NCBI GenBank assembly: GCA_040754495.1
Contig: JBFMCO010000009.1
Location: forward strand, 1 to 35,702
Direction: 5' to 3'
From: Candidatus Micrarchaeota archaeon
Lineage (GTDB): Archaea; Micrarchaeota; Micrarchaeia; Anstonellales; Bilamarchaeaceae
DNA length: 35,702 nucleotides
The translations under genes were made by a program, and so were the position numbers. This document shows positions 4,314 to 25,249 of this stretch, piece after piece. How positions within the stretch are numbered: position 1 is the stretch's first letter; each line of letters starts with the position of its first letter. The notes under the pieces were generated by a model, which was given only the letters and a program-made list of their open reading frames with translations, made no database searches and was not told the DNA's origin.

Positions 4314-4335
4314 CGGAGGGATATCGCGATGAAGA

Positions 4336-4343
4336 TATTAAAA
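4336..4343 (-). promoter_or_regulatory. TATA box of the GT4 gene
   Basis: Minus-strand TTTTAATA lies 23 nt before the ATG at 4313. Confidence 0.5.
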
Positions 4344-4416
4344 GCGGTCAGGGGAGGGCGCCGGGAGTTCCGGACTTCTTCTGACACCCGGGCATCTCAC
4401 AGGTGGTTTTCAGCAT

Positions 4417-4458
4417 CCGGCAGCCAGTTGCCGGAAACCGGATACCGGCAACCACGGG
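4417..4458. repeat. Degenerate heptamer tandem array with hairpin potential
   Basis: CCGGCAG CCAGTTG CCGGAAA CCGGATA CCGGCAA CCACGGG. Contains the inverted repeat GTTGCCGG...CCGGCAAC. Confidence 0.55.
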
Positions 4459-4481
4459 GCAAAGGATAATTGCTTGCGGCT

Positions 4482-5957: not shown

Positions 5958-5980
5958 AGGCCTGTTCCATCCAAGAAACA

Positions 5981-5987
5981 TTTTAAA
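5981..5987. promoter_or_regulatory. Near-palindromic TATA box shared by divergent genes
   Basis: TTTTAAA lies 24 nt from ATG 5957 (-) and 23 nt from ATG 6010 (+). Confidence 0.6.
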
Positions 5988-6009
5988 CCAGCCCTCCTCA
6001 GGTTATGTG

Positions 6010-7236
6010 ATGAGGGACGGCTGGAAAACGGAGGGGCCCGCGCTGGACGAGCTGGTCCTCGGGACGAAAGACGGGCGGAAGGGGAAGAGGGCGCTCGCAA
6101 TCGTCATCACTTCGTTCCAGGCGCGCGAGAGCCTCGCGGAGCACCTTAGGCGCCTTTCCCGCCAGAGCAGGAAGGATTTCGACATAATCGCGGTTTACGG
6201 CGAAAAGGACGAGTTCCTGGAAACGCCGGGATGGGCCGGGGTTCTCCATGTGCGCGAGAAAGGCAGGATGGGCTGCGCAGGGGCGAATTACATCGGGCAG
6301 AAGATAGCCCTGCAGGAGGGGTATGAAAGCGTAATCCTCGCGGACGACGACTGCATGCCGGTTTCGGACGACCTCGTGGAGAAGCTCGCAGGCTCGCCTG
6401 GCGACTGCGCGATGCCCAACGCCGGATACGGGAGGCAGGAGGCGGTTCCCGGATTCATCATCCACCACTACGGCATCCTGCGGCGCGGGGTGCTTGAGAA
6501 GGCCGGCCTCACGTACCTCCCTTTCGGAAACGGCGGGGAGGACCTTGAGCTAATCGACCGCATCAGGAAGGCAGGGATGAATTTCTCGCAGGCCGATGCC
6601 CGGGTTTCGCATCCTGCGCCCGCGCCGATGATGCTCGAGGGCGGGGGGCGTCTTTTCCATTATCAGCGGGGCCTCCTGCTGTACCGGCTCATATGCCGGA
6701 TGCGCGTTTCCGCGCTGAGGTACATCGCCTACAGCCTTCTTTCAGGCCTGCTCATGGCATGCGCCGGGGACCGCGGACGCGGGGTGCTGGTTTTCCGCGC
6801 GCTCTGGGCCGGAAGCGGGATGAGGATGTTCAGGGAGGAGGTCAGCGGCCCGGAGAAGGCTTCGCCCCTGCCGGCAGAGGATGGATATGAGAGGGTGGAG
6901 CCGGAAGGAGGGGATGCGGTTGCAGCCATCCGGATGCTGCCTTCGCTGCCAGGGCTTTTCGGAAAGCGGATTCTCCTTTGCAGGACTTCCAGGCCGCACG
7001 CGGTGCGGGACCTGGCGCCCCTTCTCATGGCCCGGGGCTCCGCAATCGAGCATGACGGGAAGGCATACGCTTTCGGAAAGGAGCGTGGCCTGGCGCACAT
7101 TGCGGCCGGCATCATCCTCGCGCTCTTTCTGGTGCCCCTCATCCTGCCTGCCGCGCTCATGCTGTGGGCCCGCGGAATCGTCTGCAGGGAGCTTTCCGGG
7201 ATAGACACGGCAGGATATGGCGTCCGCGGCCGCTAG
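6010..7236 (+). CDS. GT2-family glycosyltransferase with C-terminal membrane segments, paralog A
   Basis: AIVITSF, GCAGANYIG, ILADDDC and GGEDLE motifs. The true start is at 6010; the ORF-track extension to 5650 overlaps the opposite-strand gene. Confidence 0.8.
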   Translation: MRDGWKTEGPALDELVLGTKDGRKGKRALAIVITSFQARESLAEHLRRLSRQSRKDFDIIAVYGEKDEFLETPGWAGVLHVREKGRMGCAGANYIGQKIALQEGYESVILADDDCMPVSDDLVEKLAGSPGDCAMPNAGYGRQEAVPGFIIHHYGILRRGVLEKAGLTYLPFGNGGEDLELIDRIRKAGMNFSQADARVSHPAPAPMMLEGGGRLFHYQRGLLLYRLICRMRVSALRYIAYSLLSGLLMACAGDRGRGVLVFRALWAGSGMRMFREEVSGPEKASPLPAEDGYERVEPEGGDAVAAIRMLPSLPGLFGKRILLCRTSRPHAVRDLAPLLMARGSAIEHDGKAYAFGKERGLAHIAAGIILALFLVPLILPAALMLWARGIVCRELSGIDTAGYGVRGR

Positions 7237-8498
7237 CCGGGTTTTGCGACCTTGGACACCACGGTCCTGAGCTTGCCTTCAGTCTTCTGCAGGCGCGGGG
7301 GCTCCTCGAACTCGACGCTCACGCGCTCGCCGAGGCAGGCGCCGAGTATGCGCTTCCTCACCTCGCGGCGCGATTCCTCAGGGAACCCTGAAGGCGCCGG
7401 GACGAGCCTGAAGACGAAATGGTCCGGGCGCTCCTGGACGAGCTGGTAGGCGAGCAGGCCCGGGATGCCGTCCATTATGTCGAAAGAGACAGGGGAGCGC
7501 TCCCGCCCGGAAGGAAGGACTATGAAATCGTTGTCGCGCCCCTCGAGGGATTTCAGGACCGGCAGGCTCCGCCCGCAAGGGCAGTCATTGCCCCAGCTCC
7601 CGCGGTCGCCGATGCGGTATCTCAGCAGGGGCATGGCCTGGTTGGATAGCGAGGTGACGAGGATGTCGCCGCTGCCGCTTTTTTTCGGCCTCCCCCGTGC
7701 ATCCGCAATCTCAAGCAGGCACGATGGCGCGCACACGTGCAGCCTCTTCTCTTCAGGGCACTCGAAAGCCAGCGTGCCGAATTCCACGCACCCGTATTGC
7801 TGGAACACCCTGCCGGAAAACGACTCCTCAAGAAGCCTCCTGCGGCCCGCGCTAAGCGTTTCGGCCCCGCAGAAGACGGATTTGAGGCGCAGGCGCGGCC
7901 CGGAGGCCAGATTGAGGCGGGCGAGCACTGCGAGCGTGGAAGGGTACCATCCGAGGATATCGGGCCTCCCGCGCCGAAGCAGCTCCAGGTTGCGTGACTC
8001 GTCCTCGAAAACCGAGAGCGGGAGCTTCCTGAAAAGCCCGAAGGCAGGAAGGAGAGGGAGCGTGTGGCACGGCCTGACCGAAATCTCCGCGAAAAGGTCG
8101 AAGGGCGTGCGCCCGAACTCGGTCTGCACAAGCCCGAGCGTTGCGGTCCTCTGGTCCGCAGCGTCCTGGTCGAGGCAGAGGCGCAGGGGCGTGCCCGTCG
8201 AGCCGGACGTGCTTATTGGATAAAGTTTCCTCCCGGAATCCGGTGCCATGAACGACTGCATGCCGCCCTGCACCTGCCCCTTCAGGGTGGGCGGCAGAAG
8301 CGAGATGTCGGATTCCAGCTCCTCCGGCGTGATGGAGAGCCCGTCCATGAGCCGGCCGTAGTACGGAGTCGAGAGAGCGCGGCGCACGATTGCCCCGAGG
8401 CGCCGGCGCTGGAGGCGCACGAGCGAGTCCCGGCCCGCCCACTGCGCGTTGCGCAACTCAAGGAAGCGCCCGAGGACGCCGAGCATTCGGGCATGCAT
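7233..8498 (-). CDS. CapK/PaaK-like adenylate-forming (ANL superfamily) ligase, paralog 1
   Basis: STSGSTGTP P-loop, QYGCVEFG, PLLRYRIGD, GRDND and C-terminal KLRTVVS. Confidence 0.88.
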   Translation of the reverse strand: MHARMLGVLGRFLELRNAQWAGRDSLVRLQRRRLGAIVRRALSTPYYGRLMDGLSITPEELESDISLLPPTLKGQVQGGMQSFMAPDSGRKLYPISTSGSTGTPLRLCLDQDAADQRTATLGLVQTEFGRTPFDLFAEISVRPCHTLPLLPAFGLFRKLPLSVFEDESRNLELLRRGRPDILGWYPSTLAVLARLNLASGPRLRLKSVFCGAETLSAGRRRLLEESFSGRVFQQYGCVEFGTLAFECPEEKRLHVCAPSCLLEIADARGRPKKSGSGDILVTSLSNQAMPLLRYRIGDRGSWGNDCPCGRSLPVLKSLEGRDNDFIVLPSGRERSPVSFDIMDGIPGLLAYQLVQERPDHFVFRLVPAPSGFPEESRREVRKRILGACLGERVSVEFEEPPRLQKTEGKLRTVVSKVAKPG

Positions 8499-8517
8499 GA
8501 ATTGATTTCGATGCATG

Positions 8518-8525
8518 TTTTAAAA
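8518..8525. promoter_or_regulatory. Palindromic TATA box shared by divergent genes
   Basis: TTTTAAAA lies 20 nt from ATG 8498 (-) and 25 nt from ATG 8550 (+). Confidence 0.6.
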
Positions 8526-8549
8526 AAACGGAAGCAAAGAGTGGATGTG

Positions 8550-9851
8550 ATGAAAAAACGGCCCGATGCCGCGCCAGCGCTGGATGCGCTCGTTGCAGAG
8601 CGCAAGGACATGAGGAGGGCACCCCGCGCAAAGGCCGCGCTGGTGATAACCACGTACGGCAACGCCCCCATGCTGAAGGGGCATATCGAGAGGCTCGGCC
8701 TCCAGAAATGGAAGGGCTTCGACATCATCATCGTCTATGGGGAGAAGGACGGCTTCATCGAGGCGCCTGCGTGGGCGGGCATCCTGCACCTGCGCGAGAA
8801 GGGAAGGAATGGCTGCTCGGGGGCGTATTACATCGGGGAGCGGGCCGCCCTTGAGGAAGGCTACGGGATAATCATCCTCGCGGACGACGACTGCATGCCC
8901 GTGTCAGTTGACCTCGTCGAATCGCTGGTGAAGGAGGTGGAGGGCGGCTCGCAAATCGCCATCCCGCGCCTCGGCTCCCCGCAGGCGTCATGGAAGCCCC
9001 GCGTGCCCCATTATTACGGGGCTCTGAGCGCCAAAGCGCTGAGGTCGGCAGGGCTTACGTTCCTGCCGCTCTTCTTCGGGGGGGACGACGTGGAGTTCAT
9101 GAGCAGGATGAGGAATTCCGGGTTTTCCCCGAAGCACATAGAAGCGTACGCGTGGCATCCGCCGGCAAAGCCATTCCTCATCGACGCGTCGTGGAAAAGG
9201 TACTACTATTCCCGGGGGGAGCTGGAGGCGCTCGTCCTGAACCGCGGATTCCCGGAGGCATTTGCCTTCGCCGCGATGGGCCTGTTCATGGCTGCCTCCC
9301 TTGCGGCTTTCGGAAGGATGGGCCAGGCCGGAAGGACGCTGCATGGCCTGTGGGACGGCTCGCGGCTCGTGTTTTTCGAAGCGAAGAATGCGGGCGGCAA
9401 CGGCCCGCAGGCCCTTGCTAAGGAGCCGGAGGCGGACCTCGTGTTCGATTCCAGGGAGGCAGCCGGCAGGCGGGTGCAGGGCCCGAACATGATGCTTTAT
9501 TCTGACGATGCCGGGCAGGGCCTGCTGTGGTATGCCGGAAGGTGCGCGTCCATCCTCGCGTCGTTTCCGAAATACCTTGGCAAGCGCATCCTGTTCCGCG
9601 GAGGAAACAGCGCGCTCAGCCTTCCTGCCATCGCGATGGCCCGCAGCGCTTACATGGTGCACGAAGGGAAGGCGTACGAGGTTTTCAGCGGGCGGGGCAT
9701 GATACGGATAGTCGCGGGGCTCGCCCTGCTCGCGTTCGCCGCTCCTTTCGTGCTTCCGCTTGCGCTCTGCCTCTCCCTGGGGGGATTCGCCGTGCGTGCC
9801 TGGAAAGGGGTAACGAGCTCGGGCTACGGCCTTGAGACTCGGAAGGATTAA
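8550..9851 (+). CDS. GT2-family glycosyltransferase with C-terminal membrane segments, paralog B
   Basis: ALVITTY, GCSGAYYIG, ILADDDC and GGDDVE motifs. Colinear with 6010..7236. Confidence 0.8.
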   Translation: MKKRPDAAPALDALVAERKDMRRAPRAKAALVITTYGNAPMLKGHIERLGLQKWKGFDIIIVYGEKDGFIEAPAWAGILHLREKGRNGCSGAYYIGERAALEEGYGIIILADDDCMPVSVDLVESLVKEVEGGSQIAIPRLGSPQASWKPRVPHYYGALSAKALRSAGLTFLPLFFGGDDVEFMSRMRNSGFSPKHIEAYAWHPPAKPFLIDASWKRYYYSRGELEALVLNRGFPEAFAFAAMGLFMAASLAAFGRMGQAGRTLHGLWDGSRLVFFEAKNAGGNGPQALAKEPEADLVFDSREAAGRRVQGPNMMLYSDDAGQGLLWYAGRCASILASFPKYLGKRILFRGGNSALSLPAIAMARSAYMVHEGKAYEVFSGRGMIRIVAGLALLAFAAPFVLPLALCLSLGGFAVRAWKGVTSSGYGLETRKD

Positions 9852-9876
9852 AAGAGCGGAAAGGGAAGCATAAGCG

Positions 9877-10578
9877 ATGGCGGAAGGAAAAGTGTCCGTG
9901 ATTCTCCCGGTGCACAACGAGGGCAGGACCCTCGAGGGCAACGTGAAGCGGCTGATAGGCACGCTGGACGGATGCCTCGGCGACTACGAGATACTCATCA
10001 GCGAGGACGGCAGCACGGACGGGAGCACCGGGGTCGCGAAATCGCTCCGCTCGGCGCGCGTGAGGACGTTCCACAACGACAATCGGGTGGGCAAGGGCGC
10101 CGCGATAAAGAGCGCCGCAGCCCGCGCGCGCGGCAACATCATAATTTTCATGGACGCTGACCTCGCCTCGGAGCCGGCCCACGTGAAGGAGCTTGTCGGC
10201 TTCATACGCGACGGCGCGGCAATCGTCATAGGCTCGCGCTACCTGCCCGGAGCGAAGGCGAGCAGGAGCATGGTGCGGTATGTCGCGAGCAGGGCTTTCA
10301 ACATGCTTGTCAGCCTTCTTCTGGGCTCAAGGCTCAGCGACCACCAGTGCGGGTTCAAGGCTTTCAGGAAGGACCTCGTGCTCCCGGTCGTGAACGAGGT
10401 CGAGGACGAATGGTGGTTCTGGGACACCGAGCTTCTCGTGCGCGCCCAGCGCAGGGGCCTGCGCATAAGCGAAATCCCGATTCATTGGAAAGAGGTCTCA
10501 GGCTCCAGGTTCAGGCTCTTCCATGACAGCCTCAAGATGGCGTCCTGCCTCCTGAAGTTCAAGCTGAGGCACGGCTAG
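9877..10578 (+). CDS. Dolichyl/polyprenyl-phosphate glycosyltransferase (DPM1/ALG5-like GT2)
   Basis: VILPVHNE, EDGSTDGS, GKGAAI, FMDAD, SDHQCGFKAF and WFWDTELL motifs. Confidence 0.9.
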   Translation: MAEGKVSVILPVHNEGRTLEGNVKRLIGTLDGCLGDYEILISEDGSTDGSTGVAKSLRSARVRTFHNDNRVGKGAAIKSAAARARGNIIIFMDADLASEPAHVKELVGFIRDGAAIVIGSRYLPGAKASRSMVRYVASRAFNMLVSLLLGSRLSDHQCGFKAFRKDLVLPVVNEVEDEWWFWDTELLVRAQRRGLRISEIPIHWKEVSGSRFRLFHDSLKMASCLLKFKLRHG

Positions 10579-12215
10579 CGGCTTTCACGGCCGACGCCGT
10601 ACGATGCCATCCTGCAGAGGGCCTCCGCGGCAGGATTGGGGACGCGGGCCTTCTTCAGCACTTTCGCGAGCATGGCGACATCCTCGCGCCCGATGCATTT
10701 GAGGAGCAGGCAGAAGCAGGCGAAAAACGCGATTGCGGCTGCGCTCATGAGGCCGATGAAAGCGGCATAGAGGATTTTCGGCACGTAGAAGGGCGCGTCC
10801 GGTCCGGCTGCGCCCTGGATGCCTGCCGAGAGCGAGCTGATGATGGGGCCTGATAAGAACATTATGGCGAGCGTCGCCAGGCCGGCAAGCGCCAGCTTGA
10901 AGACTTCCGCCGGAAGGCGGTATCCGAAATGCTTCCTGGCGTAGTATGCGAGAAGCGTTGCGTTGGCCGCGAATCCCATGAGCGAGGAGATTGCCGAGCC
11001 CGCGATGCCGAGCACCGGGATGAGGAGGATATTCAGCACGATGTTGAGCAGGCCCGCGGCGACCGTGATTTCTATCTGGAGCCGGACGAGGCGCATGGCC
11101 GAGAGCGTGAGCGACAGGACGTATGAGACCGCCTTGAGCAGGATGCCGAGCGCGAGAATCGACATGACGATGCCGCCCGCCCGGTACTGCTCGCCATAAA
11201 GCGCGGCGAGTATGTCGCCCGAAAAGGCCATCATGACAAGGCCGAATGGCACGGTCATGAGGAGGGACCAGCGCTGTGCGGTCTCGGTCGCCGCGCCTAT
11301 CTGCAGCGTGTCGTTCTTCCCGTAAAGCCGGGATATCATCGGCAGGAATATGCCCCCTATGGAGTTCGGAATCGTCAGCAGGACGCCTGCCAATGACGCA
11401 GCGACCGCATAGACCGCGACGGCTTCGGTCGCCTCTGATGGGTCGAGGAGGAAGCCGAGCAGCACCCTGCTTGTCGAGAAGAAAAGCGCGCCGAGCGACG
11501 AGAGGAAGCCGAACATGAGGCCGAACGGGATGATTTCCCCGGTCAGCTGGGCCGCGCTTATGCCGCTGCCCGCAGGGAGCCCTTCCGCTCTTTTCCGCAC
11601 GAATACGAGCGAGAGCAGGATGGCCGGGACGAAGGAGAGCAGGAGGGCCGCGCCGACCGCGTTCGCGGATGGGCCGAACGTCATTATGAGCAGGGGGGCA
11701 AGGACGAGCTTCAGGAGGTTCTGGAGGTTCTGCGAAAGCTGCATGGAGCGTATGTCGGCCCTGGCCCGTATGAACGAAGTCGTAACGGCGAATATGTTCG
11801 TGAGCAGGAGGGAGAGGGACAGCATGCGGACCATGTCCGGAAGGCGCGGGTTCTGGTAGAGCGCCCCGATATTGTCCGCCTGCCACCAGAGAAGCAGGAC
11901 GAGCACCGCGGCGGAGGCGATTGTAAGGATGACGCTTACCCGCAGGAGCTCGCGGATTTTCCCTTTTTCGTTGCGGCCCTCGAAGAACGGGACGTAGCGC
12001 ACGAGCGCGCTCGCCATGCCGAGGTTGTCTATGACGGAGGGGAGCGAGACGATGCCCATCGCGAGGAAGAAAAGGCCGAGCTCGTCCTGCGGGACAAGGC
12101 GCGCGACGATGATGGTGTAGAAGAACGAGAACGAGTAGAAGAACGCGCTGCCGAGGAGGCCCCACATGCTCCCTTTCGCGACCTCCTTGGAGGATTCAGC
12201 TGGCTCGTCCTGCAT
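10575..12215 (-). CDS. Oligosaccharide/polysaccharide flippase (Wzx/MOP family)
   Basis: About 14 TM. Motifs include ELGLFFLA, NLGMASALVRYV, VAVYAVA, IFLPMISRLY and LNILLIPVLGIAGSAIS. SD GGTGA lies 4 nt before the ATG. Confidence 0.92.
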   Translation of the reverse strand: MQDEPAESSKEVAKGSMWGLLGSAFFYSFSFFYTIIVARLVPQDELGLFFLAMGIVSLPSVIDNLGMASALVRYVPFFEGRNEKGKIRELLRVSVILTIASAAVLVLLLWWQADNIGALYQNPRLPDMVRMLSLSLLLTNIFAVTTSFIRARADIRSMQLSQNLQNLLKLVLAPLLIMTFGPSANAVGAALLLSFVPAILLSLVFVRKRAEGLPAGSGISAAQLTGEIIPFGLMFGFLSSLGALFFSTSRVLLGFLLDPSEATEAVAVYAVAASLAGVLLTIPNSIGGIFLPMISRLYGKNDTLQIGAATETAQRWSLLMTVPFGLVMMAFSGDILAALYGEQYRAGGIVMSILALGILLKAVSYVLSLTLSAMRLVRLQIEITVAAGLLNIVLNILLIPVLGIAGSAISSLMGFAANATLLAYYARKHFGYRLPAEVFKLALAGLATLAIMFLSGPIISSLSAGIQGAAGPDAPFYVPKILYAAFIGLMSAAAIAFFACFCLLLKCIGREDVAMLAKVLKKARVPNPAAEALCRMASYGVGRESR

Positions 12216-12219
12216 CCCC

Positions 12220-13737
12220 TCACCTGCCCTTGCGCGCGAGGCGCCCGATGGAGAGCAGCGTCCTGTATCTCAGGTCCGAGCCTTTTGCGGATTTGCCTGA
12301 AATGACAGGAACTGGCTTGCCGTCCAGCGCCTCGGGGACAGCATAGCCGAAATAGGAGAGCACTGTCGGAGCGATATCAAGGAGGTGGAGGGTGTCGAGC
12401 CTGCCCAGCGCCCTGAGGTTCGGGCCGCACGAGACGAAGACGCCAAGCTCCCTGTGCGCCCCGTTCATCTCCCTTGCAGAGTCCACTTTCTTGCCGAGCG
12501 TCCTTGCGCCCGAGCAGCTGAAATGCACGTCATGCTCGGGAACTGCAGTGAGGGGCGGCGCTTTCTCCACGTGCGGGCCGGAATACAGCGACTCGCGCGC
12601 ATAAACGTCCCGCACGACTGCCGAGCCTTCCTCGTCCGAAGCGGCCTTGACAAGCTGCGCGACATGCTTCCGGTCATGGCCCGCAGGCACCATTATGCCG
12701 CCGTTGCGAGAGCTCAGGAACACCGAGCCCGGGTAATCTATGGCTCCGCCGCCGACGACGTCGCTCGGGAACACGGAGCGCCCGAGATTCGCAAGCAGCC
12801 TCGAGCGGCGGATGAAATCGTACAGCTGGAGCGGGATGAACGAGAGGACGCGCTCGCGCGTGAGGCCGGCCGCGTGCATCGCGCCCCTGCGCGTGGCCTT
12901 TTTCAGCTTCAGCACGCCGTTTTTCACGAAATAGGTGTTCATGAAGAATATGCGCCGGATTTCCCGGAACCCGTGGTCGGACGCTATGAGCACGTCGCAG
13001 CCGGAATCGAGCAGCTCGCCGAGAAGCGGGTCCAGCATTTTGTAGATTTCAGCGATTTCCGTGCCGGACTTTTTGTCCGCATTCAGGAACTCGCTCATGA
13101 AATAGTGCTGCACCCAGTCCGTCTCGGAGAAGACCATGAAGGCCGCGTCCCATTCCTTGCTTTTCAAAAGATGCCTCGCGACCTTCATGCGGGAATCCAG
13201 GCCTTTCTTGAGCGTGCGCACGATGCCTGACTTGTCGGCGGAGGCGCCCATCTTGACGAGCTGGCCCTCGGGCCCCATGTCGAAATCGTAATCCGGGACG
13301 ATGCCGAGGATTTCCGTCCGGAGCCCTGCCGGCGCTGTGAATGCGCTGTCCCGGTCCGGAGTCCCGAAGCCCGTGATGAGCATCGCGTTCGCGCTCGTTC
13401 TTGGCGGGAATGACATCGGTATGTTGAACGCGAGCACCTTCTCCCTGTGCATCAGCTCCCAGAAATACGGCGCCTGCCTGTCCGCGCCCGAGGTGTATCT
13501 CGGCTTCCCGTTGACGACCGTCCCGAAATCGAATATGCCGTGCTTCCCGGGATTAACGCCGGTGAATATGCTCGTCCAGGCCGGGGCTGTGAGAGGCGGG
13601 ATTGTGGAGCGCAGGTGCGCCCGCGTGCCCTTATCCATTGCCCGCTTGAAATTCGGCAGGCAGCCTTCCTTGATTAGGGGGTCGAGGACCTCCCAGTCGG
13701 CGCCGTCTACGCCGAACAGGACTAGTTTCCGGCTCAT
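12220..13737 (-). CDS. AlkP-superfamily protein (COG3379 type), paralog 2
   Basis: LFGVDGADW, STIPPLTAPAWTSIFTG, TDWVQH, SDHG and AHRELG motifs. Confidence 0.88.
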   Translation of the reverse strand: MSRKLVLFGVDGADWEVLDPLIKEGCLPNFKRAMDKGTRAHLRSTIPPLTAPAWTSIFTGVNPGKHGIFDFGTVVNGKPRYTSGADRQAPYFWELMHREKVLAFNIPMSFPPRTSANAMLITGFGTPDRDSAFTAPAGLRTEILGIVPDYDFDMGPEGQLVKMGASADKSGIVRTLKKGLDSRMKVARHLLKSKEWDAAFMVFSETDWVQHYFMSEFLNADKKSGTEIAEIYKMLDPLLGELLDSGCDVLIASDHGFREIRRIFFMNTYFVKNGVLKLKKATRRGAMHAAGLTRERVLSFIPLQLYDFIRRSRLLANLGRSVFPSDVVGGGAIDYPGSVFLSSRNGGIMVPAGHDRKHVAQLVKAASDEEGSAVVRDVYARESLYSGPHVEKAPPLTAVPEHDVHFSCSGARTLGKKVDSAREMNGAHRELGVFVSCGPNLRALGRLDTLHLLDIAPTVLSYFGYAVPEALDGKPVPVISGKSAKGSDLRYRTLLSIGRLARKGR

Positions 13738-13763
13738 ATCGGCAACAAATGGGGTTCATTCTA

Positions 13764-13770
13764 TTTTTAA
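13764..13770. promoter_or_regulatory. TATA-like box between divergent AlkP paralog 2 and cysD
   Basis: TTTTTAA is the main AT tract in the 66-nt divergent spacer. Confidence 0.45.
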
Positions 13771-13803
13771 GTGTATCCGGGGTAAATCCTTCCAGGTGGT
13801 TGA

Positions 13804-14592
13804 TTGGCGGAGCTTCAGGACCTTGACAGGCTCGAGGAGGGCAGCGTGTTCATACTGCGCGAGGCCAAGGCCAAATTCAGGAGGCTTGCCGCGCTCTGGA
13901 GCATGGGCAAGGACTCGACGGCCATGCTCGCCCTTGCCCGCAAGGCGTTCTTCGGCAGGGTGCCCTTCCCTGTCATACACATAGACAACGGCATTGATTT
14001 CCAGGAGACATACGAGTTCAGGAAAAGGCTGGCCGACGAATGGGGGCTGGAGCTGATTGTAGCGAAAAGCGAAATCAAGGACGACATCTCCGGCATCCGC
14101 TGCTGTGGCGCGAACAAGACCGACGCGCTCAAGAAGGTCCTGGACGAGAGGGGGTTCGACGGCCTCATCGTTTCCATCCGCAGGGACGAGCACGGCATCC
14201 GCGCGAAGGAGCGGCACTTTTCCCCGCGCGACAGGGAGTTCAGGTGGAACTACAAGGACCAGCCGCCCGAGGTCTGGGGATATACCAGCAGATTCGAGGG
14301 CAGCTCGCACGTCCGCATCCACCCGCTCCTGCAGTGGAACGAGGTGGACATCTGGAGGTACGTGAAAAGGGAGAGCGTCCCGGTCAATCCGCTCTATTTC
14401 TCGAAAGCAGGGAAGAGATACCGGAGCCTCGGCTGCACGCAGTGCACCGTGGCAATAGAGTCAGGGGCATCTTCCGTGGACGACATCATCGCGGAACTCG
14501 GGAAGACGTCCATCGCCGAGCGCTCAGGGAGGATGCAGGACAAGGAGCAGGAAAACGTGATGCAGAGGCTGCGCGCTCTTGGCTACATGTGA
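13804..14592 (+). CDS. cysD: Sulfate adenylyltransferase subunit 2
   Basis: PP-loop WSMGKDS, FPVIHID, RRDE..RAKERHFSPR, RIHPLLQWNE, YRSLGC and RSGRMQD motifs. TTG start with SD GGTGG at 4-nt spacing. Confidence 0.93.
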   Translation: MAELQDLDRLEEGSVFILREAKAKFRRLAALWSMGKDSTAMLALARKAFFGRVPFPVIHIDNGIDFQETYEFRKRLADEWGLELIVAKSEIKDDISGIRCCGANKTDALKKVLDERGFDGLIVSIRRDEHGIRAKERHFSPRDREFRWNYKDQPPEVWGYTSRFEGSSHVRIHPLLQWNEVDIWRYVKRESVPVNPLYFSKAGKRYRSLGCTQCTVAIESGASSVDDIIAELGKTSIAERSGRMQDKEQENVMQRLRALGYM

Positions 14593-14596
14593 ATCT

Positions 14597-15841
14597 ATGG
14601 CAAAGGAAATCCGCATCTCGCTTCTTGGCCACAAGGACCATGGGAAATCCACCCTTGTCGGCAGGCTCCTCCACGACACGGGCTCCATGACCAAGGACCG
14701 AATAGAGGAGGCCAAAGCCATCTGCGCGGCTTCGGGGAAGGAGTTCGAGCTGGCATTCCTGCTGGACAGCTTCGTGGAGGAGAGGGAAGGCGGCTTCACG
14801 CTCGACACGACGACCGCGCAGGCCCGCCACCGTGATGTGATATATAACCTGATTGACGTGCCCGGCCATCGGGAACTTGTCAAGAACATGCTGAGCGGGG
14901 CCTCGCAGGCCGATGCCGCCATACTGATTGTCTCGGCAAAGGAGGACGAGGGGCTTCAGGACGAGACGAGGCTCCACCTTTACATGGCCTCCATGCTCGG
15001 CATACGAAGGCTTGTCGTCGCTGTGAACAAGATGGACGCCGTGGGGTATGGGCGTGAGAGATTCGAGTCGCTGAAAAGCAGCGTTTCCGCTGTGCTGTCC
15101 TCTTTCGGCTTCGGGGATTTCTCATTCGTGCCGGTTTCAGCGAGGAACGGGGACAATGTCATGGAGCGCTCAGGCTCCATGGAATGGTATGACGGCAGGC
15201 CGCTGATTTCGCTCATGGAGGAGTTCGCCGACGGCCATGAGGAGACGCGTCTCCGTTCCCTTGCTCCGCGGCTCTTCGTGCAGGACGCTTACGACGTGGA
15301 CGGCGGGAAGATGCTCGTCGGGAGGCTGGAAACCGGGATGCTGGGGACCGGCCAGGTGGTTGCCATCGAGCCTCTCGGCCTCAGGACCACGATAAAAGCC
15401 ATCCACTCCCCGGGCGGGGCTGAGAGGAAGGAAGCCGAAGCCGGGCAGAACATCGGCCTCAGGCTTGCTTATTCCGGCGATATCGGGAGGGGATGCGTCA
15501 TAGCCGGGGAGGAAAGCGCGCCCCGGGCCGGCAGGGAATTCGAGGCGCTCATATTCTGCTTCCCGGAGTGCTCGCTCGAGCCTGGCGAGGAGCTTACTGT
15601 GACGTGCTCCTCGCAGGAGGCTTCGGCAATGATAAAGAGGGTGAGGAGCAGGATGAACCCTATAAAAGACCTCCATCCGCACCCTGCCCAGCTCGGCGGC
15701 GTCGGTTCCTGCGAGGCTGCTGAAGTGTCGCTCGAGACCGGCTCGCCGCTCGTGTTCGAAAGGTTCTCTGAGATGCCGCCAACCGGAAGGTTCATAATCT
15801 CTAAAGCCGGGAAAATCGCCGGCGTGGGCGTGATACTCTGA
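14597..15841 (+). CDS. cysN: Sulfate adenylyltransferase subunit 1 (GTPase), no fused APS kinase
   Basis: GHKDHGKSTL, EERE.GFTLD, DVPGH, NKMD and VSARNGDN motifs. Lies directly downstream of cysD. Confidence 0.85.
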   Translation: MAKEIRISLLGHKDHGKSTLVGRLLHDTGSMTKDRIEEAKAICAASGKEFELAFLLDSFVEEREGGFTLDTTTAQARHRDVIYNLIDVPGHRELVKNMLSGASQADAAILIVSAKEDEGLQDETRLHLYMASMLGIRRLVVAVNKMDAVGYGRERFESLKSSVSAVLSSFGFGDFSFVPVSARNGDNVMERSGSMEWYDGRPLISLMEEFADGHEETRLRSLAPRLFVQDAYDVDGGKMLVGRLETGMLGTGQVVAIEPLGLRTTIKAIHSPGGAERKEAEAGQNIGLRLAYSGDIGRGCVIAGEESAPRAGREFEALIFCFPECSLEPGEELTVTCSSQEASAMIKRVRSRMNPIKDLHPHPAQLGGVGSCEAAEVSLETGSPLVFERFSEMPPTGRFIISKAGKIAGVGVIL

Positions 15842-16602
15842 TAGTCATAGGGCTGGACGGGGCGACGTGGAGGGTGATAAAGCCCAACCTGGAGCGCCTG
15901 CCCTCCTTCAAAACGCTTCTTGGGAAGCACTTGCACTCCACGCTCGTCTGCGACGTGCGGCCCGTGCATTCCGCCCCTTCATGGACTACGATTTTCAGCG
16001 GCCTCATGCCTTCCGAGCATGGAATCATGCATTTCGTGATGGATGGAAAGGCAAGGGAGGAGCTTCTTGCCAGGAAGATATTCGTCTGGGACAGGGTGAA
16101 GCGCGCCATAGTGATGGGCGTGCCTGTTGCCCTGCCCCCGCTCAACAGGAATTACCAGCTCCGCGACTGGGAGAAGCACGTGCTTTCCGTGAAAGGCGAG
16201 GAGATGCTCGAGAGCACGCGCAAGCTCTGCTCGGATGTGGCCGGGGCGATAGAGTTCGGCGAGGCGGACCTCGTGGCCGCGGTCTTCTCAGAGCCGGACC
16301 GGGCCCAGCACATGTTCTGGAACGAGCCCGAGACCGTGCTCAGGCACTACAAAAGCGTTGATGACGCGCTCGCGAGGCTGCTCCCGCTACTTGAAGGCAG
16401 GGATTTCCTGATTCTCAGCGACCACGGCTTCACCGATGCCGCTGAGACGAAGAGAAACAACTGGGACACAGTGCGCGACAACCAGAGCGGCGGACACCAC
16501 CCCGAGGGCATCGCCATTTCTAACCTCGAGCCTCCGGCGAAGGTGAGCCAGGTCTGCTCCTTCATAGAGGCTTCCCTTTCGCGCCGCGGCCTGCTTCTTT
16601 AA
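15838..16602 (+). CDS. Short AlkP-superfamily protein, paralog 3 (probable CTG start)
   Basis: The conserved IVIGLDGATW lies in frame upstream of the first GTG (15874). Other motifs: HSAPSWTTIFSG, PDRAQH, SDHG and HHPEG. CTG at 15838 overlaps the cysN stop. Confidence 0.8.
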   Translation: MIVIGLDGATWRVIKPNLERLPSFKTLLGKHLHSTLVCDVRPVHSAPSWTTIFSGLMPSEHGIMHFVMDGKAREELLARKIFVWDRVKRAIVMGVPVALPPLNRNYQLRDWEKHVLSVKGEEMLESTRKLCSDVAGAIEFGEADLVAAVFSEPDRAQHMFWNEPETVLRHYKSVDDALARLLPLLEGRDFLILSDHGFTDAAETKRNNWDTVRDNQSGGHHPEGIAISNLEPPAKVSQVCSFIEASLSRRGLLL

Positions 16603-16627
16603 ACGTTACGCAGCACTGTTTATTCAC

Positions 16628-17812
16628 ATGACCAAGCCGTCGTTCCTGATTACGCATTCGTGGAGCCACAACATGGGCGACACGGCGATTCTTCTCGCGA
16701 CCGTTGACATGCTCCATTCCATCGCTCCGGGGTGCAGCGTCAGCGCCCTGGCGTCGCATCCTTCATTTACGAAAGAGAGATGCCCCCGCTTCAGGGGGCA
16801 TATAGACGCCTGGCCCTGGCCGGTTCCAGCCGGCAGGCCGGGCTTGCTCGACCTTGCGTATTACCCTGTGCTATTCATGGGCAATCTGCTCTCCGCTGCC
16901 GCCTACAGGCTTTTTGGGGCCAGGCTGTTCGTGCTCAATGGGGGGTTCTCCGGCCCGCTGACGAGGTTCTTCGAGAGCGACGTGGTGATAAGCCCGGGCG
17001 GGGACTTCATCGGCCCGCATTACTTCTTCATGACCGCCTTCGGCGAGATGCTGATGGCCAAAATCCTCGGCAAGCGCCTTGTCGTTTGCGCCCAGACCAT
17101 AGGCCCGTTCCGGGGCCTCCTGCACAGGAGGCTCGCATCTGCCGTGCTTGGCATGGCAGACCTGATTATCGTGAGGGAGGAGCGCACCGCGCAAAGGCTC
17201 AGGGAGGCAGGCCTGAAGGACGTTCACGTTACATCGGACATCGCCTTCACGTTCCCCCAGCCGAAAAAAAGGCAGCGGAAGGCCGGGCGGGTGATACTCT
17301 GCCCTAAGAAGCTCCGGGAGGGCAGGGAGGATTATGCGCAGGCGATGGTGGCTTTAGGCCGGAAAATCGCCGCTGAAGGCTGCGAGGTTGTGCTCGTAGC
17401 GAGCGACGCGTACGATGCAGGGCTTCACGCAGAAATCGCCCGCGGGATAGGGCCGCAGGCGAAGCTGGTTGGCGCCATCCACCCACCGGACAGGCTGGCC
17501 GGATACATCGCAGGCTCGGACTTCATAGTTTCCAGCAGGATGCACGCAATAATCCTCGGCTCGCTTTCGCACACGCCCTTCTTCGCCATCGGCGACAGCC
17601 ACAAGTTCCAGGACGTCCTCGGGGACTTGTGCCAGGGGTGCTCCATGGATGCCGGGGAGCTTGACGAGAAGGGGATTGAACGGGTGCTTGATTCCTTTGG
17701 GAGAAGGGAGGAGCTGAGGGCTTCAATCTCCGAATCCTTCCCTTCAGTAAAGGAGAAGGCGTCGCGGAGCGGGCTCATACTCAGGGAAAAGCTTACGGAG
17801 TGGGGATTATGA
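16628..17812 (+). CDS. Polysaccharide pyruvyl transferase family (WcaK/CsaB-like)
   Basis: N-terminal NMGDTAIL, SPGGDFIG, AQTIGPF, VREE and SRMHAIILG motifs. Confidence 0.88.
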   Translation: MTKPSFLITHSWSHNMGDTAILLATVDMLHSIAPGCSVSALASHPSFTKERCPRFRGHIDAWPWPVPAGRPGLLDLAYYPVLFMGNLLSAAAYRLFGARLFVLNGGFSGPLTRFFESDVVISPGGDFIGPHYFFMTAFGEMLMAKILGKRLVVCAQTIGPFRGLLHRRLASAVLGMADLIIVREERTAQRLREAGLKDVHVTSDIAFTFPQPKKRQRKAGRVILCPKKLREGREDYAQAMVALGRKIAAEGCEVVLVASDAYDAGLHAEIARGIGPQAKLVGAIHPPDRLAGYIAGSDFIVSSRMHAIILGSLSHTPFFAIGDSHKFQDVLGDLCQGCSMDAGELDEKGIERVLDSFGRREELRASISESFPSVKEKASRSGLILREKLTEWGL

Positions 17813-18003
17813 ACGTGGATATTCCGGCAGGATTGTACAAGAAACTAGAGGAGAGGATAAAGGGCAGCGAGTTTTCCAGTGTCTCGGACTACGTTGCATT
17901 CGTGCTCACCGAGCTGCTTGCGGCCGAGGAGGCTTCAGGCGGGAGTTCCGAGGACGAGGGCAAGGTCAAGGAAAGGCTCAGGTCTTTGGGCTACCTCGAC
18001 TGA
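17809..18003 (+). CDS. Small ribbon-helix-helix (CopG-like) protein with C-terminal ERLRSLGYLD tail
   Basis: ATGA overlap with the upstream stop. VDIPAGLYKKLEERI...FSSVSDYVAFVL fits an RHH pattern. Confidence 0.8.
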   Translation: MNVDIPAGLYKKLEERIKGSEFSSVSDYVAFVLTELLAAEEASGGSSEDEGKVKERLRSLGYLD

Positions 18004-20500: not shown

Positions 20501-20558
20501 GGGGAAGAATTGGGTTTTATCTTTTTTAATGGGGATGGATGACGGGCCTGGCCGGGCA

Positions 20559-21848: not shown

Positions 21849-21892
21849 GAAGCGGGTTAGGGCGGGCAATGTTTATAATCCGGGCCGCTCCT

Positions 21893-23239
21893 TCAAAGCT
21901 GCCCTGCAGCCTCGTATGCGACCGAGTCGAACCTTCCGTCGCCGGTAAGCAGGAAAACGACGTTTCTCCTCATTTTCTGATGCTCGGCCGCGGCCGCCTC
22001 CTCCATAGCCGCGAGGATGGCATGCGCGGACTCCGGCGCCGGCAGGAATCCCTCGGACTTCTGGAATTCGAGGCCGGCCTCCAGGACTTCTTTTTGGGCA
22101 AACGCCACCGCCTTCACATGACCGAGCTGATGGAGCATCGAAAGGACCGGGTTCTTTCCGTGGTACCTCAGCCCGCCTGCATGGAGCTTTGGCGGCACGT
22201 TTTCATGTCCCAGGCTGTTCATCAGCAGGAGGGGCATGAGCTCTCCATGGTCCTGGTAGTCCCATTCGTACCTACCCTGCGTCAGGACTGGAATGTTCGC
22301 CGATTCGGCGGCCACGAACACCGGGCCTTTCCTGCCTGCGAGCTTGTCGTCTATGTACGGGGCCACCAGGCCGCAGAAATTGCTCCCGCCCCCGATGCAG
22401 GCGACCAGCACGTCGGGCTCGACCTTCAGCGCGGCAAGCTGCGCAACGACCTCCTGCCCGATTATCGACTGGTGGAGGGCCGCGTAATAGGACATGCACC
22501 CAAGGAGCAGGGCGGTCTCGCCATCGACGGTCGAAACCGCCTCGGACATGCCTATGCCGAGGCTTCCCGGATGGTCCTTGTCCTTGCGCAGCTCGGCCCT
22601 GCCGACCCCGGTTTTTTCGCTGGGCGAGGATACGACTTCCGCCCCGTACTCCTCCATCATCGCGACCCTGCCCTTCTTGTCGCGGTAGCTCTGGGCGGTC
22701 ATGAATATCGTGGAGCGGAGGCCCATCCTCCTTGCGGCTATCGCGACCGCTATGCCCCATTGGCCCGCCCCGGTATCGGTCACGACTTTTTTCCTGCCGT
22801 CCCACTTCGCATAAAGCGCCTGCGCAAGCGACGTGTTGAGCTTGTGGCTGCCGCTAGGGGTGCATGACTCGTCCTTGACATATATGGCGGCGTATTCGAG
22901 GGAGGCCTTTCCAAGCCGCGCCGCGACCGCCTTCTCAAGCCCGGAAGCGCGGTAAAGTGGGGTGGGCCTGTACTTCAGGTACTCGTCGTAGACCTCCCGG
23001 GGAATCTCTATTTCCCTTTCGGTCCGGTAAGGCCCGCTCAGGGTTTCGATTCTTGCCGCTTCCGTGGAGGTCATTTTCGCAAGCGCCTGCTCCGGAAACG
23101 GCTCCACGGCGTTCCCGCTTTCCCTGCCCGGCACGGGAAGCTCGAGCCCGTTCCTGAAGAAATCTGAAAGGAAGTTCCTCCACGTCCTTGGCACGGGCAC
23201 AAGAGGGCCCTTCCGTTCCTCCATCGGATTTTCCACCAC
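21893..23239 (-). CDS. trpB2: TrpB2-like PLP-dependent enzyme (divergent active site)
   Basis: RPTPLYRA, GSHKLNT (PLP Lys codon 22841-22843), TDTGAGQWG, PGSLGI, GGGSNF, HAGGLRYHG and PAPESAHA motifs. Start is GTG 23239 or ATG 23224. Confidence 0.9.
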   Translation of the reverse strand: MVENPMEERKGPLVPVPRTWRNFLSDFFRNGLELPVPGRESGNAVEPFPEQALAKMTSTEAARIETLSGPYRTEREIEIPREVYDEYLKYRPTPLYRASGLEKAVAARLGKASLEYAAIYVKDESCTPSGSHKLNTSLAQALYAKWDGRKKVVTDTGAGQWGIAVAIAARRMGLRSTIFMTAQSYRDKKGRVAMMEEYGAEVVSSPSEKTGVGRAELRKDKDHPGSLGIGMSEAVSTVDGETALLLGCMSYYAALHQSIIGQEVVAQLAALKVEPDVLVACIGGGSNFCGLVAPYIDDKLAGRKGPVFVAAESANIPVLTQGRYEWDYQDHGELMPLLLMNSLGHENVPPKLHAGGLRYHGKNPVLSMLHQLGHVKAVAFAQKEVLEAGLEFQKSEGFLPAPESAHAILAAMEEAAAAEHQKMRRNVVFLLTGDGRFDSVAYEAAGQL

Positions 23240-23268: not shown

Positions 23269-24492
23269 TCAGCGGACTTTCGATACGACCCTCTCGATTT
23301 TTCCCGTCCTGCCCCTGGGAATCCTCTCTACATGCTCGAACTCCAGCCGTATCTCTTCCCCGAGGCATGCCTTTCTCATGTCGGCCGTTATCTCATCCTT
23401 CGTCCTTTCGGTCAGCTCCGACCCGCAATAGCGCAGCACGAACAGGTCCTCGCGCTCCTGGATAATCTGGTACTGGGTGATTTCGCTGACCGCGGCGTCG
23501 ATATCGAGAATCCCGAGGCTGATCGCCGGGTGCGTTTTTCCGCTCGGCAGCCTGATGAGCACCGGGTTCCTGCCTTCAAAGGAACCGAGAACCGGGTATC
23601 CCCGGCCGCACGGGCAATCCTTCCCCCATGAACCCGTGTCGCCGAGCCCGTACCTGATGAGGGGCATCGTCCGGTTATACAGGGACGTGACCACGATGTT
23701 CCCTTTCCCGTGCTTTTTCGGCCTTCCCTTATGGTCGACGATTTCCACCTTGAGGGTGCTGGAATTCACGTGCATCCTCCCCTCCTCCGGGCATTCCCAT
23801 GCGACCGAGCGGAATTCCCATGCCCCGTAATAATCCAGGACCGGGCAGGAGAACGAGTCCCCGATGAGCTTCCTCGCGCCCGGAGTCAGTGTCTCCCCGC
23901 AGGCGATAATCGACTTCGGCCTGATTTTTTTGTTCATCCTGGCAAGCATGGCCAGGATGGACGGGTATCCCTTTATCATCTCCGGCCTGTTCCTGGCGAT
24001 TTTTTCATATATCGCTTCTTCCGGCTCGCGGGAGTCTATCTTGAGCTTCCTGAAAAGGACGAACGAATGTGGGGCGTAGCTTTCCCTGGAGATATCTGCG
24101 AACAGCCCGAACGGCGACCTTCCCTGGGAGATTTCGTGGAAATGGACTATGGCGATCCGCTGCAAGGATTCGGCCCTGTCCGTGTATATCGTGATGGGGA
24201 TTCCGGTGGTGCCGGATGTCCTGTGGGCGTCCAGGGAGCGCATGTCCGCACCCCTCCGGATGAAAAGGAGCGGGTCGGAGCGAATCCTGTCCTTTTCCAG
24301 CACCGGAAGGAGGGAAAGGTCCCGGGCTGCATCCGCCGCGGGAACAATCCCCAGATGCCTGGAATAGTAACCGGTATCCCCGGCGCAGCGCAGTATGCCT
24401 TCCAGCTTGTTTTTTTGCGCCTCCTCGAGGGAATCCCTGTCCATCCATTCCTCCCTCCGCATGGAGAGAACATGCATGAGGATGGACATCAT
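23269..24492 (-). CDS. CapK/PaaK-like adenylate-forming ligase, paralog 5
   Basis: RTSGTTGIP, YYGAWEFR, PLIRYGLGD, GRNPV (atypical) and KIERVVS motifs. Confidence 0.85.
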   Translation of the reverse strand: MMSILMHVLSMRREEWMDRDSLEEAQKNKLEGILRCAGDTGYYSRHLGIVPAADAARDLSLLPVLEKDRIRSDPLLFIRRGADMRSLDAHRTSGTTGIPITIYTDRAESLQRIAIVHFHEISQGRSPFGLFADISRESYAPHSFVLFRKLKIDSREPEEAIYEKIARNRPEMIKGYPSILAMLARMNKKIRPKSIIACGETLTPGARKLIGDSFSCPVLDYYGAWEFRSVAWECPEEGRMHVNSSTLKVEIVDHKGRPKKHGKGNIVVTSLYNRTMPLIRYGLGDTGSWGKDCPCGRGYPVLGSFEGRNPVLIRLPSGKTHPAISLGILDIDAAVSEITQYQIIQEREDLFVLRYCGSELTERTKDEITADMRKACLGEEIRLEFEHVERIPRGRTGKIERVVSKVR

Positions 24493-24514: not shown

Positions 24515-25132
24515 TTATTTAACCCGCATGAGCCGCTTCGAAAGGCCATGGCGGAAGGAGGACCAGTGGACGAACAGGCCGAACAGCAGCGCTTCGACAG
24601 GAATCCGGTTGAGGGCGCTCGGGCGGAGCTCGACCTCGTAGTATTTGTAGGTCGTGCCGTCGAACGGGAAATACCTGTCATGGGCCGGATAGTACCGCGC
24701 CCCGAATTTCGACTCGAAACCCACGGACTCGGGCGAGGCGTATCCGTAGACCTTGCGGAAGCCCATCTCCTTCACGGTGCGGAGCCTGCTCTCGTTGAGC
24801 AGCCTGCCCACGCTCACCCCGCCCTTTCCGCCCTGGAAGCTGGCCTTGACGTAGATGAGATTGAAATAGCTGCTTTGGAGGAGCCTGTCGAACCTGCCGG
24901 ATGTGAAGCTGGAGAAGCCTGCGAGCTCCCCATCCACCTCCGCGATTATCATTTTCCCGTGAGAAAGGTAAATCTCGAACAGCTCCTCGTCCGGAAGCGA
25001 GAGGACGCGGTCGACGGCTTCGTCGGGGTGGGCGCCGCCGAGGCTTTTCCTCAGCGTGCCGTACGAATCCCTGAACAGCCGGACCACCTGCGTCTCGTCC
25101 CCGGCCCTGGCGTCCCTCAGAAGTATGTTCAT
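24515..25132 (-). CDS. GNAT-family N-acetyltransferase
   Basis: ILLRDARAGD, IIAEVDGELAGF, IYVKASFQGGKG..VGRLL (acetyl-CoA motif A) and GFESKFG. An alternative start is at 25180. Confidence 0.8.
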   Translation of the reverse strand: MNILLRDARAGDETQVVRLFRDSYGTLRKSLGGAHPDEAVDRVLSLPDEELFEIYLSHGKMIIAEVDGELAGFSSFTSGRFDRLLQSSYFNLIYVKASFQGGKGGVSVGRLLNESRLRTVKEMGFRKVYGYASPESVGFESKFGARYYPAHDRYFPFDGTTYKYYEVELRPSALNRIPVEALLFGLFVHWSSFRHGLSKRLMRVK

Positions 25133-25249
25133 GCCCGTTCCCTTTTCCAGGCTTTGGTTATTGAGTTGGATTTGAATCATTAAAAAGACCTCGGCCAGGG
25201 ATTGGAAATTGTTTTAAAAAGAAAGGTAACATAAGATTTCACGCTTTTT

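Follow-up and report, generated by a model that had tools for sequence, protein, structure and literature searches.

A TrpB2 subfamily with aspartate in place of the catalytic glutamate, a predicted redesign of the nucleophile pocket and recurrent ATP-dependent ligase partners

What reaction is catalysed by a TrpB2-like protein that carries aspartate in place of the catalytic glutamate, and whose gene lies among adenylate-forming ligases? The question is raised by a gene of a Candidatus Micrarchaeota archaeon (assembly GCA_040754495.1) located on contig JBFMCO010000009.1, positions 1 to 35,702 of which (35,702 nucleotides) were analysed here and are called the window. A sequence-only reading of the window had proposed that this gene encodes a natural synthase of a non-canonical amino acid, acting on serine or O-phosphoserine plus a non-indole nucleophile and feeding the neighbouring ligases. 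Sequence comparisons indicate that the gene is one member of an old, widespread and conserved TrpB2 subfamily, termed D1 below, and no singular mutant. On balance we favour for D1 the role of an O-phosphoserine-dependent synthase of a beta-substituted alanine, which would use a non-indole nucleophile and would feed the amide ligases of a surface glycoconjugate.

The gene product is a fold-type-II pyridoxal phosphate (PLP) enzyme of the TrpB2 lineage. It scored 456 bits with model NF009057 (cut-off 366), and the name given by NCBI to such proteins, "TrpB-like PLP-dependent enzyme", avoids the TrpB label. Its scores were below the trusted cut-off of TIGR01415 (429 bits vs 519) and below the cut-off of the canonical trpB model TIGR00263 (152 bits vs 392). 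CysK-type and threonine-synthase-type models gave merely 24-62 bits, the CysK-family models being far below their cut-offs (cysK, 39 bits vs 351; cysM, 29 vs 394; SbnA, 24 vs 350). An AlphaFold (AF2) model of the protein, built with 25 homologues, had a predicted local distance difference test score (pLDDT) of 91. The top Foldseek match of this model was SsTrpB2i (6HUL_B), with template modelling (TM) scores of 0.86/0.93; three TrpB2 structures matched at 0.82-0.93 and TrpB1 structures at 0.62-0.78. These three nearest solved structures are Sulfolobus TrpB2 entries, to which the window protein is 36-42% identical, and all of them align Glu opposite the Asp of the window protein.

The motifs VVTDTGAGQWG, LGCMSYY, GSHK (Lys133), GGGSN and TGDG were read directly in the window protein, and the GAT codon that the sequence-only reading had placed at the aspartate was found on the minus strand (Table 1). 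The PLP lysine and the phosphate loop, described earlier as intact, are so: K133, the GGGSN phosphate loop (G283-N287) and the TGAGQWG carboxylate loop (T156-G162) are invariant in an alignment with 25 homologues (A1). Arg358 in GGLRYHGK, which occupies the position of TrpB1 Asp300/305, is invariant among D1 homologues. Along with an N-terminal extension, these are features that D1 shares with TrpB2. In TrpB2, the arginine that stands where TrpB1 has Asp300 binds the O-phosphoserine phosphate group (bioRxiv 10.64898/2026.03.11.711232), and TrpB2 enzymes depend on O-phosphoserine according to Busch 2014 as cited in PMC11917138. Because Lys133, both loops and Arg358 are unchanged, the first half-reaction, in which aminoacrylate would be formed from O-phosphoserine, looks intact.

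The nucleophile side of the active site differs from that of ordinary TrpB2. Twenty ordinary TrpB2 proteins, called E-type below, read TETGAGQWG, [AS]LGSVLNH and mostly SGHG, in agreement with the contrast drawn in the sequence-only reading; in D1, LGIGM and LGCMSYY stand where ordinary TrpB2 has LGIA[IM] and LGSVLNH. The TGDG segment occurs only in the window protein and its narrow clade; the remaining D1 members have SG[TH]G. We compared 48 D1 with the 20 E-type proteins and retained the positions at least 90% conserved in D1 that differ from a conserved E-type residue (Table 1). Those of the pocket loop are 94-100% conserved across the 48 D1 proteins, and all five residues of the window protein in loop 248-252 differ from 20/20 E-type sequences. 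Lys362 is invariant in D1 and variable in E-type, and Glu60 is invariant in D1 at a column where both E-type and a second Asp-type group, D2, have a gap. The changed positions fall in two segments which we take to align with PfTrpB Leu161-Ile165 and Ile183-Pro189, lining the indole pocket. The second-substrate site is, as judged by these alignments, redesigned and was then fixed across archaea and bacteria.

How far does this pocket extend beyond the window? For the present analysis D1 was defined by TDTGAGQWG, LGIGM, LGCMS[Y/N]Y and GGLRYHGK together with placement in the D1 clade. The window protein has all of these motifs and lies inside a narrow clade with 100% support within D1, long-branched, where its closest partner is a Ca. 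Bilamarchaeum protein (83% identity, support 100). Its 120 best matches in a collection of 5.8 billion proteins show a sharp step in identity: the narrow clade accounts for 14 clusters at 61-100%, and many others lie at 44-51%. The aspartate was present in 118 of the 120. The aspartate, LGCMSYY and GGLRYHGK are invariant in the 25 homologues of A1, down to 44% identity. D1 is carried by DPANN archaea, bacteria of the candidate phyla radiation (CPR), Acidobacteria, Elusimicrobia and Gammaproteobacteria; the named sources in A1 are Acidobacteria, Uhrbacteria, Paceibacteria, Steroidobacter, Ca. Endobugula and Methylotetracoccus. No informative fusion was found among D1 proteins, the longer records resembling mis-called starts.

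A search of metagenomes for DNA encoding T-D-T-G-A-G-Q-W-G returned at least 120 loci, which are biased toward soils and peat and include many close relatives. Among the Asp-type loci listed, those from the other scans included, 62 belong to D1 (TDT, LGCMS[Y/N]Y, GGLRYHGK) and 47 to D2 (TDT, [VM]GAF[AS]N[HY], HG[AC]); eight are sporadic Glu-to-Asp changes in otherwise ordinary TrpB2 that keep LGSVLNH, and 16 more fit none of these groups. In a FastTree phylogeny rooted with three TrpB1 sequences, with which unrooted IQ-TREE runs agree, D1 forms a monophyletic group (support 0.999), as does D2 (support 1.0), and the ancestral state is E-type. The change from Glu to Asp thus appears to have arisen at least two more times beyond D1, in D2 and as sporadic single changes.

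We then compared the genomic context of Asp-type and E-type loci. The E-type control consisted of 79 loci among the best 80 from a scan of genome contigs with alignment A1; the remaining one of the 80 was D1, one of the two A1 patterns being common to E-type. Gene calls in the fetched loci were simple open reading frame (ORF) calls, and partners were recognised by tblastn with a few reference proteins. Asp-type homologues, which the sequence-only reading expected outside ordinary trp settings, were found there: among the loci listed, trp genes were nearby at 0 of 133 Asp-type and 8 of 79 E-type loci. Adjacency was scored at 50 D1 loci whose flanks spanned 1.2 kb or more and at 78 E-type loci with much longer flanks. 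A directly adjacent, same-strand ATP-dependent carboxylate-activating enzyme was present at 26 of the 50 D1 loci listed and at none of the 78 E-type loci (Fisher p about 1e-13, a value overstated since the loci are not independent). The D1 partners were of AsnB type in 11 cases, classical ANL enzymes in 13 and PaaK/CapK-like ligases in 2. Ligase adjacency was seen at one of 39 D2 loci listed. The idea of a non-canonical synthase feeding its neighbours thus keeps the rebuilt pocket, the retained arginine, the absence of a trp context and the ligase linkage. It loses the notion of a singular mutant, and also the generality of the CapK-like neighbours, which are seen only here and in one close relative, the partners elsewhere being AsnB or ANL enzymes.

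AsnB adjacency requires at least 7-8 changes on the tree and recurs in separate archaeal and bacterial lineages. Archaeal operons of the narrow clade have the order TrmB-D1-AsnB, and AsnB-D1 pairs occur in Vicinamibacterales, Pyrinomonadaceae and other acidobacterial lineages, with a Bmp-type ABC importer also nearby. In three acidobacterial lineages (L008:1181-9314, L012:4184-11287, L134:2440-8620) the pair stands beside a Bmp/BPD_transp_2/ABC_tran importer, a type usually assigned to nucleoside uptake; its position may hint at an imported co-substrate. The paired AsnB proteins start with MCGI, which points to an active glutaminase cysteine. In an Elusimicrobia metagenome-assembled genome (MAG), a narrow-clade D1 gene lies amid three AsnB-like paralogues that lack the glutaminase cysteine, a HemN-like radical SAM enzyme and an ABC exporter (L005:5013-13128). 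This association of several amide ligases with D1 echoes the five ligases of the window.

Glycoconjugate clusters surround D1 in four lineages. One is represented by the window and Bilamarchaeum locus L004. In a soil bacterium (L113), the operon encodes a MATE protein, a radical SAM enzyme, three GT2 glycosyltransferases, an LpxL-like acyltransferase, an ANL enzyme, D1 and a transporter. In Steroidobacter cummioxidans (L009:8001-13065), D1 comes after glycolipid-type genes and before those for a beta-RFAP-synthase-like protein, a cytidylyltransferase, a radical SAM enzyme of the STM4012-family/HemN-like type and a HAD hydrolase, and in a CPR-like lineage (L103) GT2 and GT4 genes adjoin D1. The neighbour resembling beta-ribofuranosylaminobenzene-5'-phosphate synthase (RFAP) recurs in 4-5 D1 loci.

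According to the favoured scheme, D1 would convert O-phospho-L-serine, or less likely serine, to aminoacrylate and would add to it one particular nucleophile other than indole; the result would be a beta-substituted alanine. This product would be taken by the co-transcribed ATP-dependent ligases and joined by an amide bond into the surface glycoconjugate. By analogy with known pathways, ammonia or an amine, leading to products of the 2,3-diaminopropionate type, fits best as nucleophile and would suit both a pocket with a shorter acidic residue and two tyrosines and the association with ligases; sulfur nucleophiles come next. The 2,3-diaminopropionate precursors of staphyloferrin B and of the dapdiamides are made by CysK-fold enzymes of the SbnA/DdaA type. 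These pathways combine O-phosphoserine with an N-nucleophile and then use ATP-dependent, AMP-forming amide ligases, to which the dapdiamide pathway adds an AsnB-like amidotransferase. The proposed logic of D1 is alike by functional analogy only; SbnA and DdaA belong to a different PALP subfamily and D1 scored only 24-39 bits on CysK/SbnA models; no SbnB-like partner was seen at D1 loci. A broader version, which we regard as speculative and doubtful, is that D1 is a natural, hitherto unrecognised archaeal and bacterial family of non-canonical amino-acid synthases that would make 2,3-diaminopropionate types from O-phosphoserine and an N-nucleophile, independently of the SbnA/SbnB route. Where D1 and AsnB recur in one operon, the glutaminase-active AsnB would form with it a two-enzyme unit, and the products would be amide-linked to surface glycans or glycolipids, in DPANN archaea included.

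Several points weigh against the favoured scheme. The loci are phylogenetically non-independent, the listed metagenome loci are soil-biased and gene calling was crude; the trees come from fast searches and have a weakly supported root on a long outgroup branch. CapK-like neighbours of D1 are present only in two closely related genomes, those of the window and of L004, and no obvious partner was seen at the D1 loci of CPR bacteria (L010, L011) and an archaeon (L212). The AsnB partners have the glutaminase cysteine, and therefore ammonia, not the D1 product, would serve as the amine, so that a scheme with the product as amine donor fails to fit every context. Finally, Asp is a conservative replacement for Glu, so that a residual activity with indole may persist, although nothing in the comparative data favours tryptophan synthesis.

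The most serious rival is that D1 supplies an ordinary amino acid, either cysteine from O-phosphoserine and sulfide, as an O-phosphoserine sulfhydrylase with a TrpB2 scaffold, or serine by addition of water, and so provisions the ligases or the cell where biosynthetic genes are scarce. We consider this unlikely, the case against it being weaker in the archaea. Thiols are substrates of known TrpB enzymes, and reactions of this kind persist in the E109D mutant. Neither of the two Micrarchaeota D1 genomes has a CysK/CysM-like gene: the window genome has two PALP-fold enzymes, TrpB1 and D1, and in the Bilamarchaeum genome (G003) D1 is the only one, hence TrpB1 is lacking. No clear SerB was found in either genome, and a second ligase cluster of the window genome, described below, appears to receive a proteinogenic amino acid from proBAC. 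On the other side, bacterial D1 carriers encode 4-9 PALP enzymes, of which 2-3 are CysK/CysM-like, and a true SerB is present in one carrier. The strictly conserved Cys-Met-Ser-Tyr-Tyr-Asp-Lys pocket exceeds the needs of sulfide or water, and the ligase linkage would be left unexplained. Among 121 sampled genomes of the same class as that of the window, about two dozen had TrpB2-type genes and only the window genome had D1, so D1 is an accessory, patchy gene, travelling with an accessory surface-polymer cluster, and not a core supply enzyme. The three best TrpB2 genes of the class were checked and are ordinary E-type, and the remaining ones are without the D1 pocket pattern. Matches to the pocket DNA pattern in two other genomes of the class were attributed to chance: they were not in TrpB-like genes, and a reversed-pattern control gave 4 matches. 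A role of D1 as sole cysteine synthase throughout the family was set aside, since CysK co-occurs in the bacteria and the distribution is accessory.

It is still less probable that D1 remains an indole-scavenging, O-phosphoserine-dependent tryptophan synthase whose Asp and loop changes merely tune the reaction. The NF009057 cut-off is passed, the chemistry-bearing residues are kept except for the Glu, and the eight sporadic changes listed in ordinary TrpB2 indicate that Asp is tolerated in that background. Against this, at least 10 pocket positions changed together and then became invariant, the trusted cut-off of TIGR01415 is missed, no listed Asp-type locus is in a trp context, and relatives of the same class retain E-type TrpB2. 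One D1 carrier (G003) is devoid of TrpB1 and of any other PALP-fold enzyme, while the window genome already has TrpB1-TrpA. The search for a second, canonical TrpB, suggested in the sequence-only reading, indeed led to contig C15, on which trpE, G, D, C, canonical trpB1 and trpA are present; no other trpA match occurs in the genome. That D1 would be a lyase or deaminase, converting serine or O-phosphoserine into pyruvate by beta-elimination, or would serve a ligase assembly as a scaffold without catalytic activity, is very improbable: a serine-deaminase role was once proposed for TrpB2, but poor deaminase activity was reported (PMC1854888), the conservation of all PLP- and substrate-binding residues speaks against a loss of catalysis, and the conserved second-substrate pocket favours replacement over elimination.

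In Salmonella beta-E109D and in engineered TrpB variants at Glu104/105, changing the Glu shifts nucleophile specificity away from indole C3, and the tyrosine synthase TmTyrS (8EGY), an engineered TrpB variant, was among the PDB matches of the window protein. Such variants carry laboratory changes at one or a few sites of TrpB1, whereas in D1 the pocket of a TrpB2 enzyme was rebuilt in concert, in nature and in an ancient lineage. It also departs from ordinary TrpB2 by the lack of trp genes at the loci listed, by its linkage to amide-forming ligases and by its score under the TIGR01415 cut-off. Full-text searches of the searchable literature found no description of an Asp-type TrpB2 subfamily, and a study of trpB2 neighbourhoods reported no conserved context besides trp operons (PMC1854888). 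D1 is apparently an undescribed TrpB2 branch; PLP-dependent beta-replacement on a TrpB2 scaffold is already known, and the specificity would be what is new.

TrpB is the main scaffold for the enzymatic synthesis of non-canonical amino acids, and the role of its TrpB2 paralogue has been debated for two decades. The present results indicate that within TrpB2 the Glu and the indole pocket have been rebuilt and fixed in at least two natural lineages; D1 and D2 each have their own conserved partners. Identifying the D1 product would add a novel natural beta-replacement to the reactions of a scaffold that is already well understood, and would explain both the recurrent partnership with AsnB, ANL and CapK enzymes and the amino acid decorating archaeal surface polymers. 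One D1 carrier, whose record bears the name Steroidobacter cummioxidans, is cultivated, which makes the role testable.

Table 1. Positions in the window of the D1 gene, its motifs and the neighbouring genes, and residues of the window protein that distinguish D1 from E-type TrpB2.
Feature	Position	Strand	Description
D1-type TrpB2-like PLP enzyme ORF	21893..23239	(-)	448 aa from GTG start, no internal stop
GAT codon, Asp155 instead of catalytic Glu (Salmonella Glu109, Pyrococcus Glu104)	22775..22777	(-)	sequence read
Rebuilt pocket loop G-C-M-S-Y-Y, residues 247-252	22484..22501	(-)	exact pattern match; replaces G-S-V-L-N-H of ordinary TrpB2
Specificity residue	69		D1 Gly, E-type Gln
Specificity residue	155		D1 Asp, E-type Glu (20/20)
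Specificity residue	230		D1 Gly, E-type Ala
Specificity residue	231		D1 Met, E-type Ile
Specificity residue	244		D1 Leu, E-type Tyr
Specificity residue	248		D1 Cys, E-type Ser
Specificity residue	249		D1 Met, E-type Val
Specificity residue	250		D1 Ser, E-type Leu
Specificity residue	251		D1 Tyr, E-type Asn
Specificity residue	252		D1 Tyr, E-type His
Specificity residue	253		D1 Ala, E-type Val
PaaK/CapK-like adenylate-forming ligase	23269..24492	(-)	directly upstream of D1, same operon; NCBIfam DVU_1553-family, PaaK, BagE/FevW matches
Conserved ~200-aa protein	24515..25180	(-)	no Pfam/NCBIfam match
Three PaaK/CapK-like ligase paralogues	20559-21869, 19250-20596, 17991-19604	(-)	directly downstream of D1
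Fifth PaaK/CapK-like ligase paralogue	7233..8516	(-)	
Glycoconjugate genes among ligases	3222..17812		GT4, GT2s, three AlkP-family, Wzx/MurJ-like flippase, CysD, CysN, CsaB-like pyruvyl transferase; Pfam/NCBIfam

In the window, a tight minus-strand run encodes the ~200-aa protein, a PaaK/CapK-like ligase, D1 and three more such ligases (Table 1). The true start of D1 is probably the ATG at 23224, giving 443 aa, since the database record has this length and is five codons shorter than the ORF. The stop of the upstream ligase lies about 45 nt ahead of the D1 start, and this ligase is 62% identical to the one preceding D1 in Bilamarchaeum locus L004, where D1 is surrounded by the same gene set. 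PDB relatives of the window ligases include PaaK and AjiA1, the latter being a direct ester- or amide-forming member. With its glycosyltransferases, flippase and other genes, the region is a glycoconjugate biosynthesis cluster. The earlier statement that the window holds no trp gene agrees with the absence of any Pfam match to trp families among the window ORFs scanned, a set that leaves out many short or overlapping ones. The listed 537-aa ORF at the far end of the ligase run (17991-19604) overlaps the ligase upstream of it by about 350 nt and its ligase homology begins near residue 130; translation probably begins near 19250, so that the protein would have about 410-420 aa, a length in line with the paralogues. 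Homologues of the ~200-aa protein adjoin CapK-like ligases in L004 and on contig C5 of the window genome. A glycine-rich motif of this protein appeared GNAT-like by eye, but a GNAT identity was rejected, the PDB profile search not being significant (E = 0.58).

Contig C5 carries a second ligase array (L215:2939-11436), in which three CapK/PaaK-like ligases are interleaved with proB, proA and proC. The order is a divergent ELFV-type amino-acid dehydrogenase, the ~200-aa protein, proB, proA, a CapK-like ligase, proC and two CapK-like ligases. CapK-like ligases are thus twice interleaved with amino-acid-making genes in the window genome. This genome (1.63 Mb, about 80% complete) is larger than sampled genomes of the same genus and family (0.8-1.2 Mb, 91-95% complete) and encodes proBAC as well as a complete trp operon. 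It may be exceptionally rich in genes for its lineage, or some contigs of the bin may be foreign.

A supply of O-phosphoserine is plausible in both archaeal D1 genomes, because each encodes a short SerA-like dehydrogenase and a class-V aminotransferase. In the window genome, phosphoglycerate dehydrogenase models matched at two places with one in-frame TGA each (G000:C50:1626-2510 and G000:C26:5459-6001). In a Pyrodictiaceae MAG (L022:9917-11970), an E-type TrpB2 gene is followed by one for a 208-aa ParB/Srx-like protein with a DGHHR motif, which presumably resembles the archaeal free serine kinase and would fit the O-phosphoserine dependence of TrpB2. Such a partner was considered as evidence for O-phosphoserine use by D1 and set aside, as it is no recurrent D1 neighbour; one D1 record (P0090) has a 45-aa N-terminal remnant of a ParB/Srx-like domain.

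D2 resembles D1 in being a TrpB2 with Asp for Glu and a rebuilt loop. It differs in the loop itself ([VM]GAF[AS]N[HY]), in the HG[AC] segment, in its independent origin, in having aldehyde dehydrogenase and exporter partners, and in the lack of ligase linkage. At 30 of the 39 loci listed, D2 precedes an aldehyde dehydrogenase gene that is translationally coupled to it, and next comes a gene for a DHA2-type exporter of the major facilitator superfamily. This operon looks like a three-gene unit for an exported product derived from an amino acid. Examples are L142:469-4918, L144, L121, L109 and about 30 further metagenome loci, and a divergent GGDEF-EAL gene is often found near the unit.

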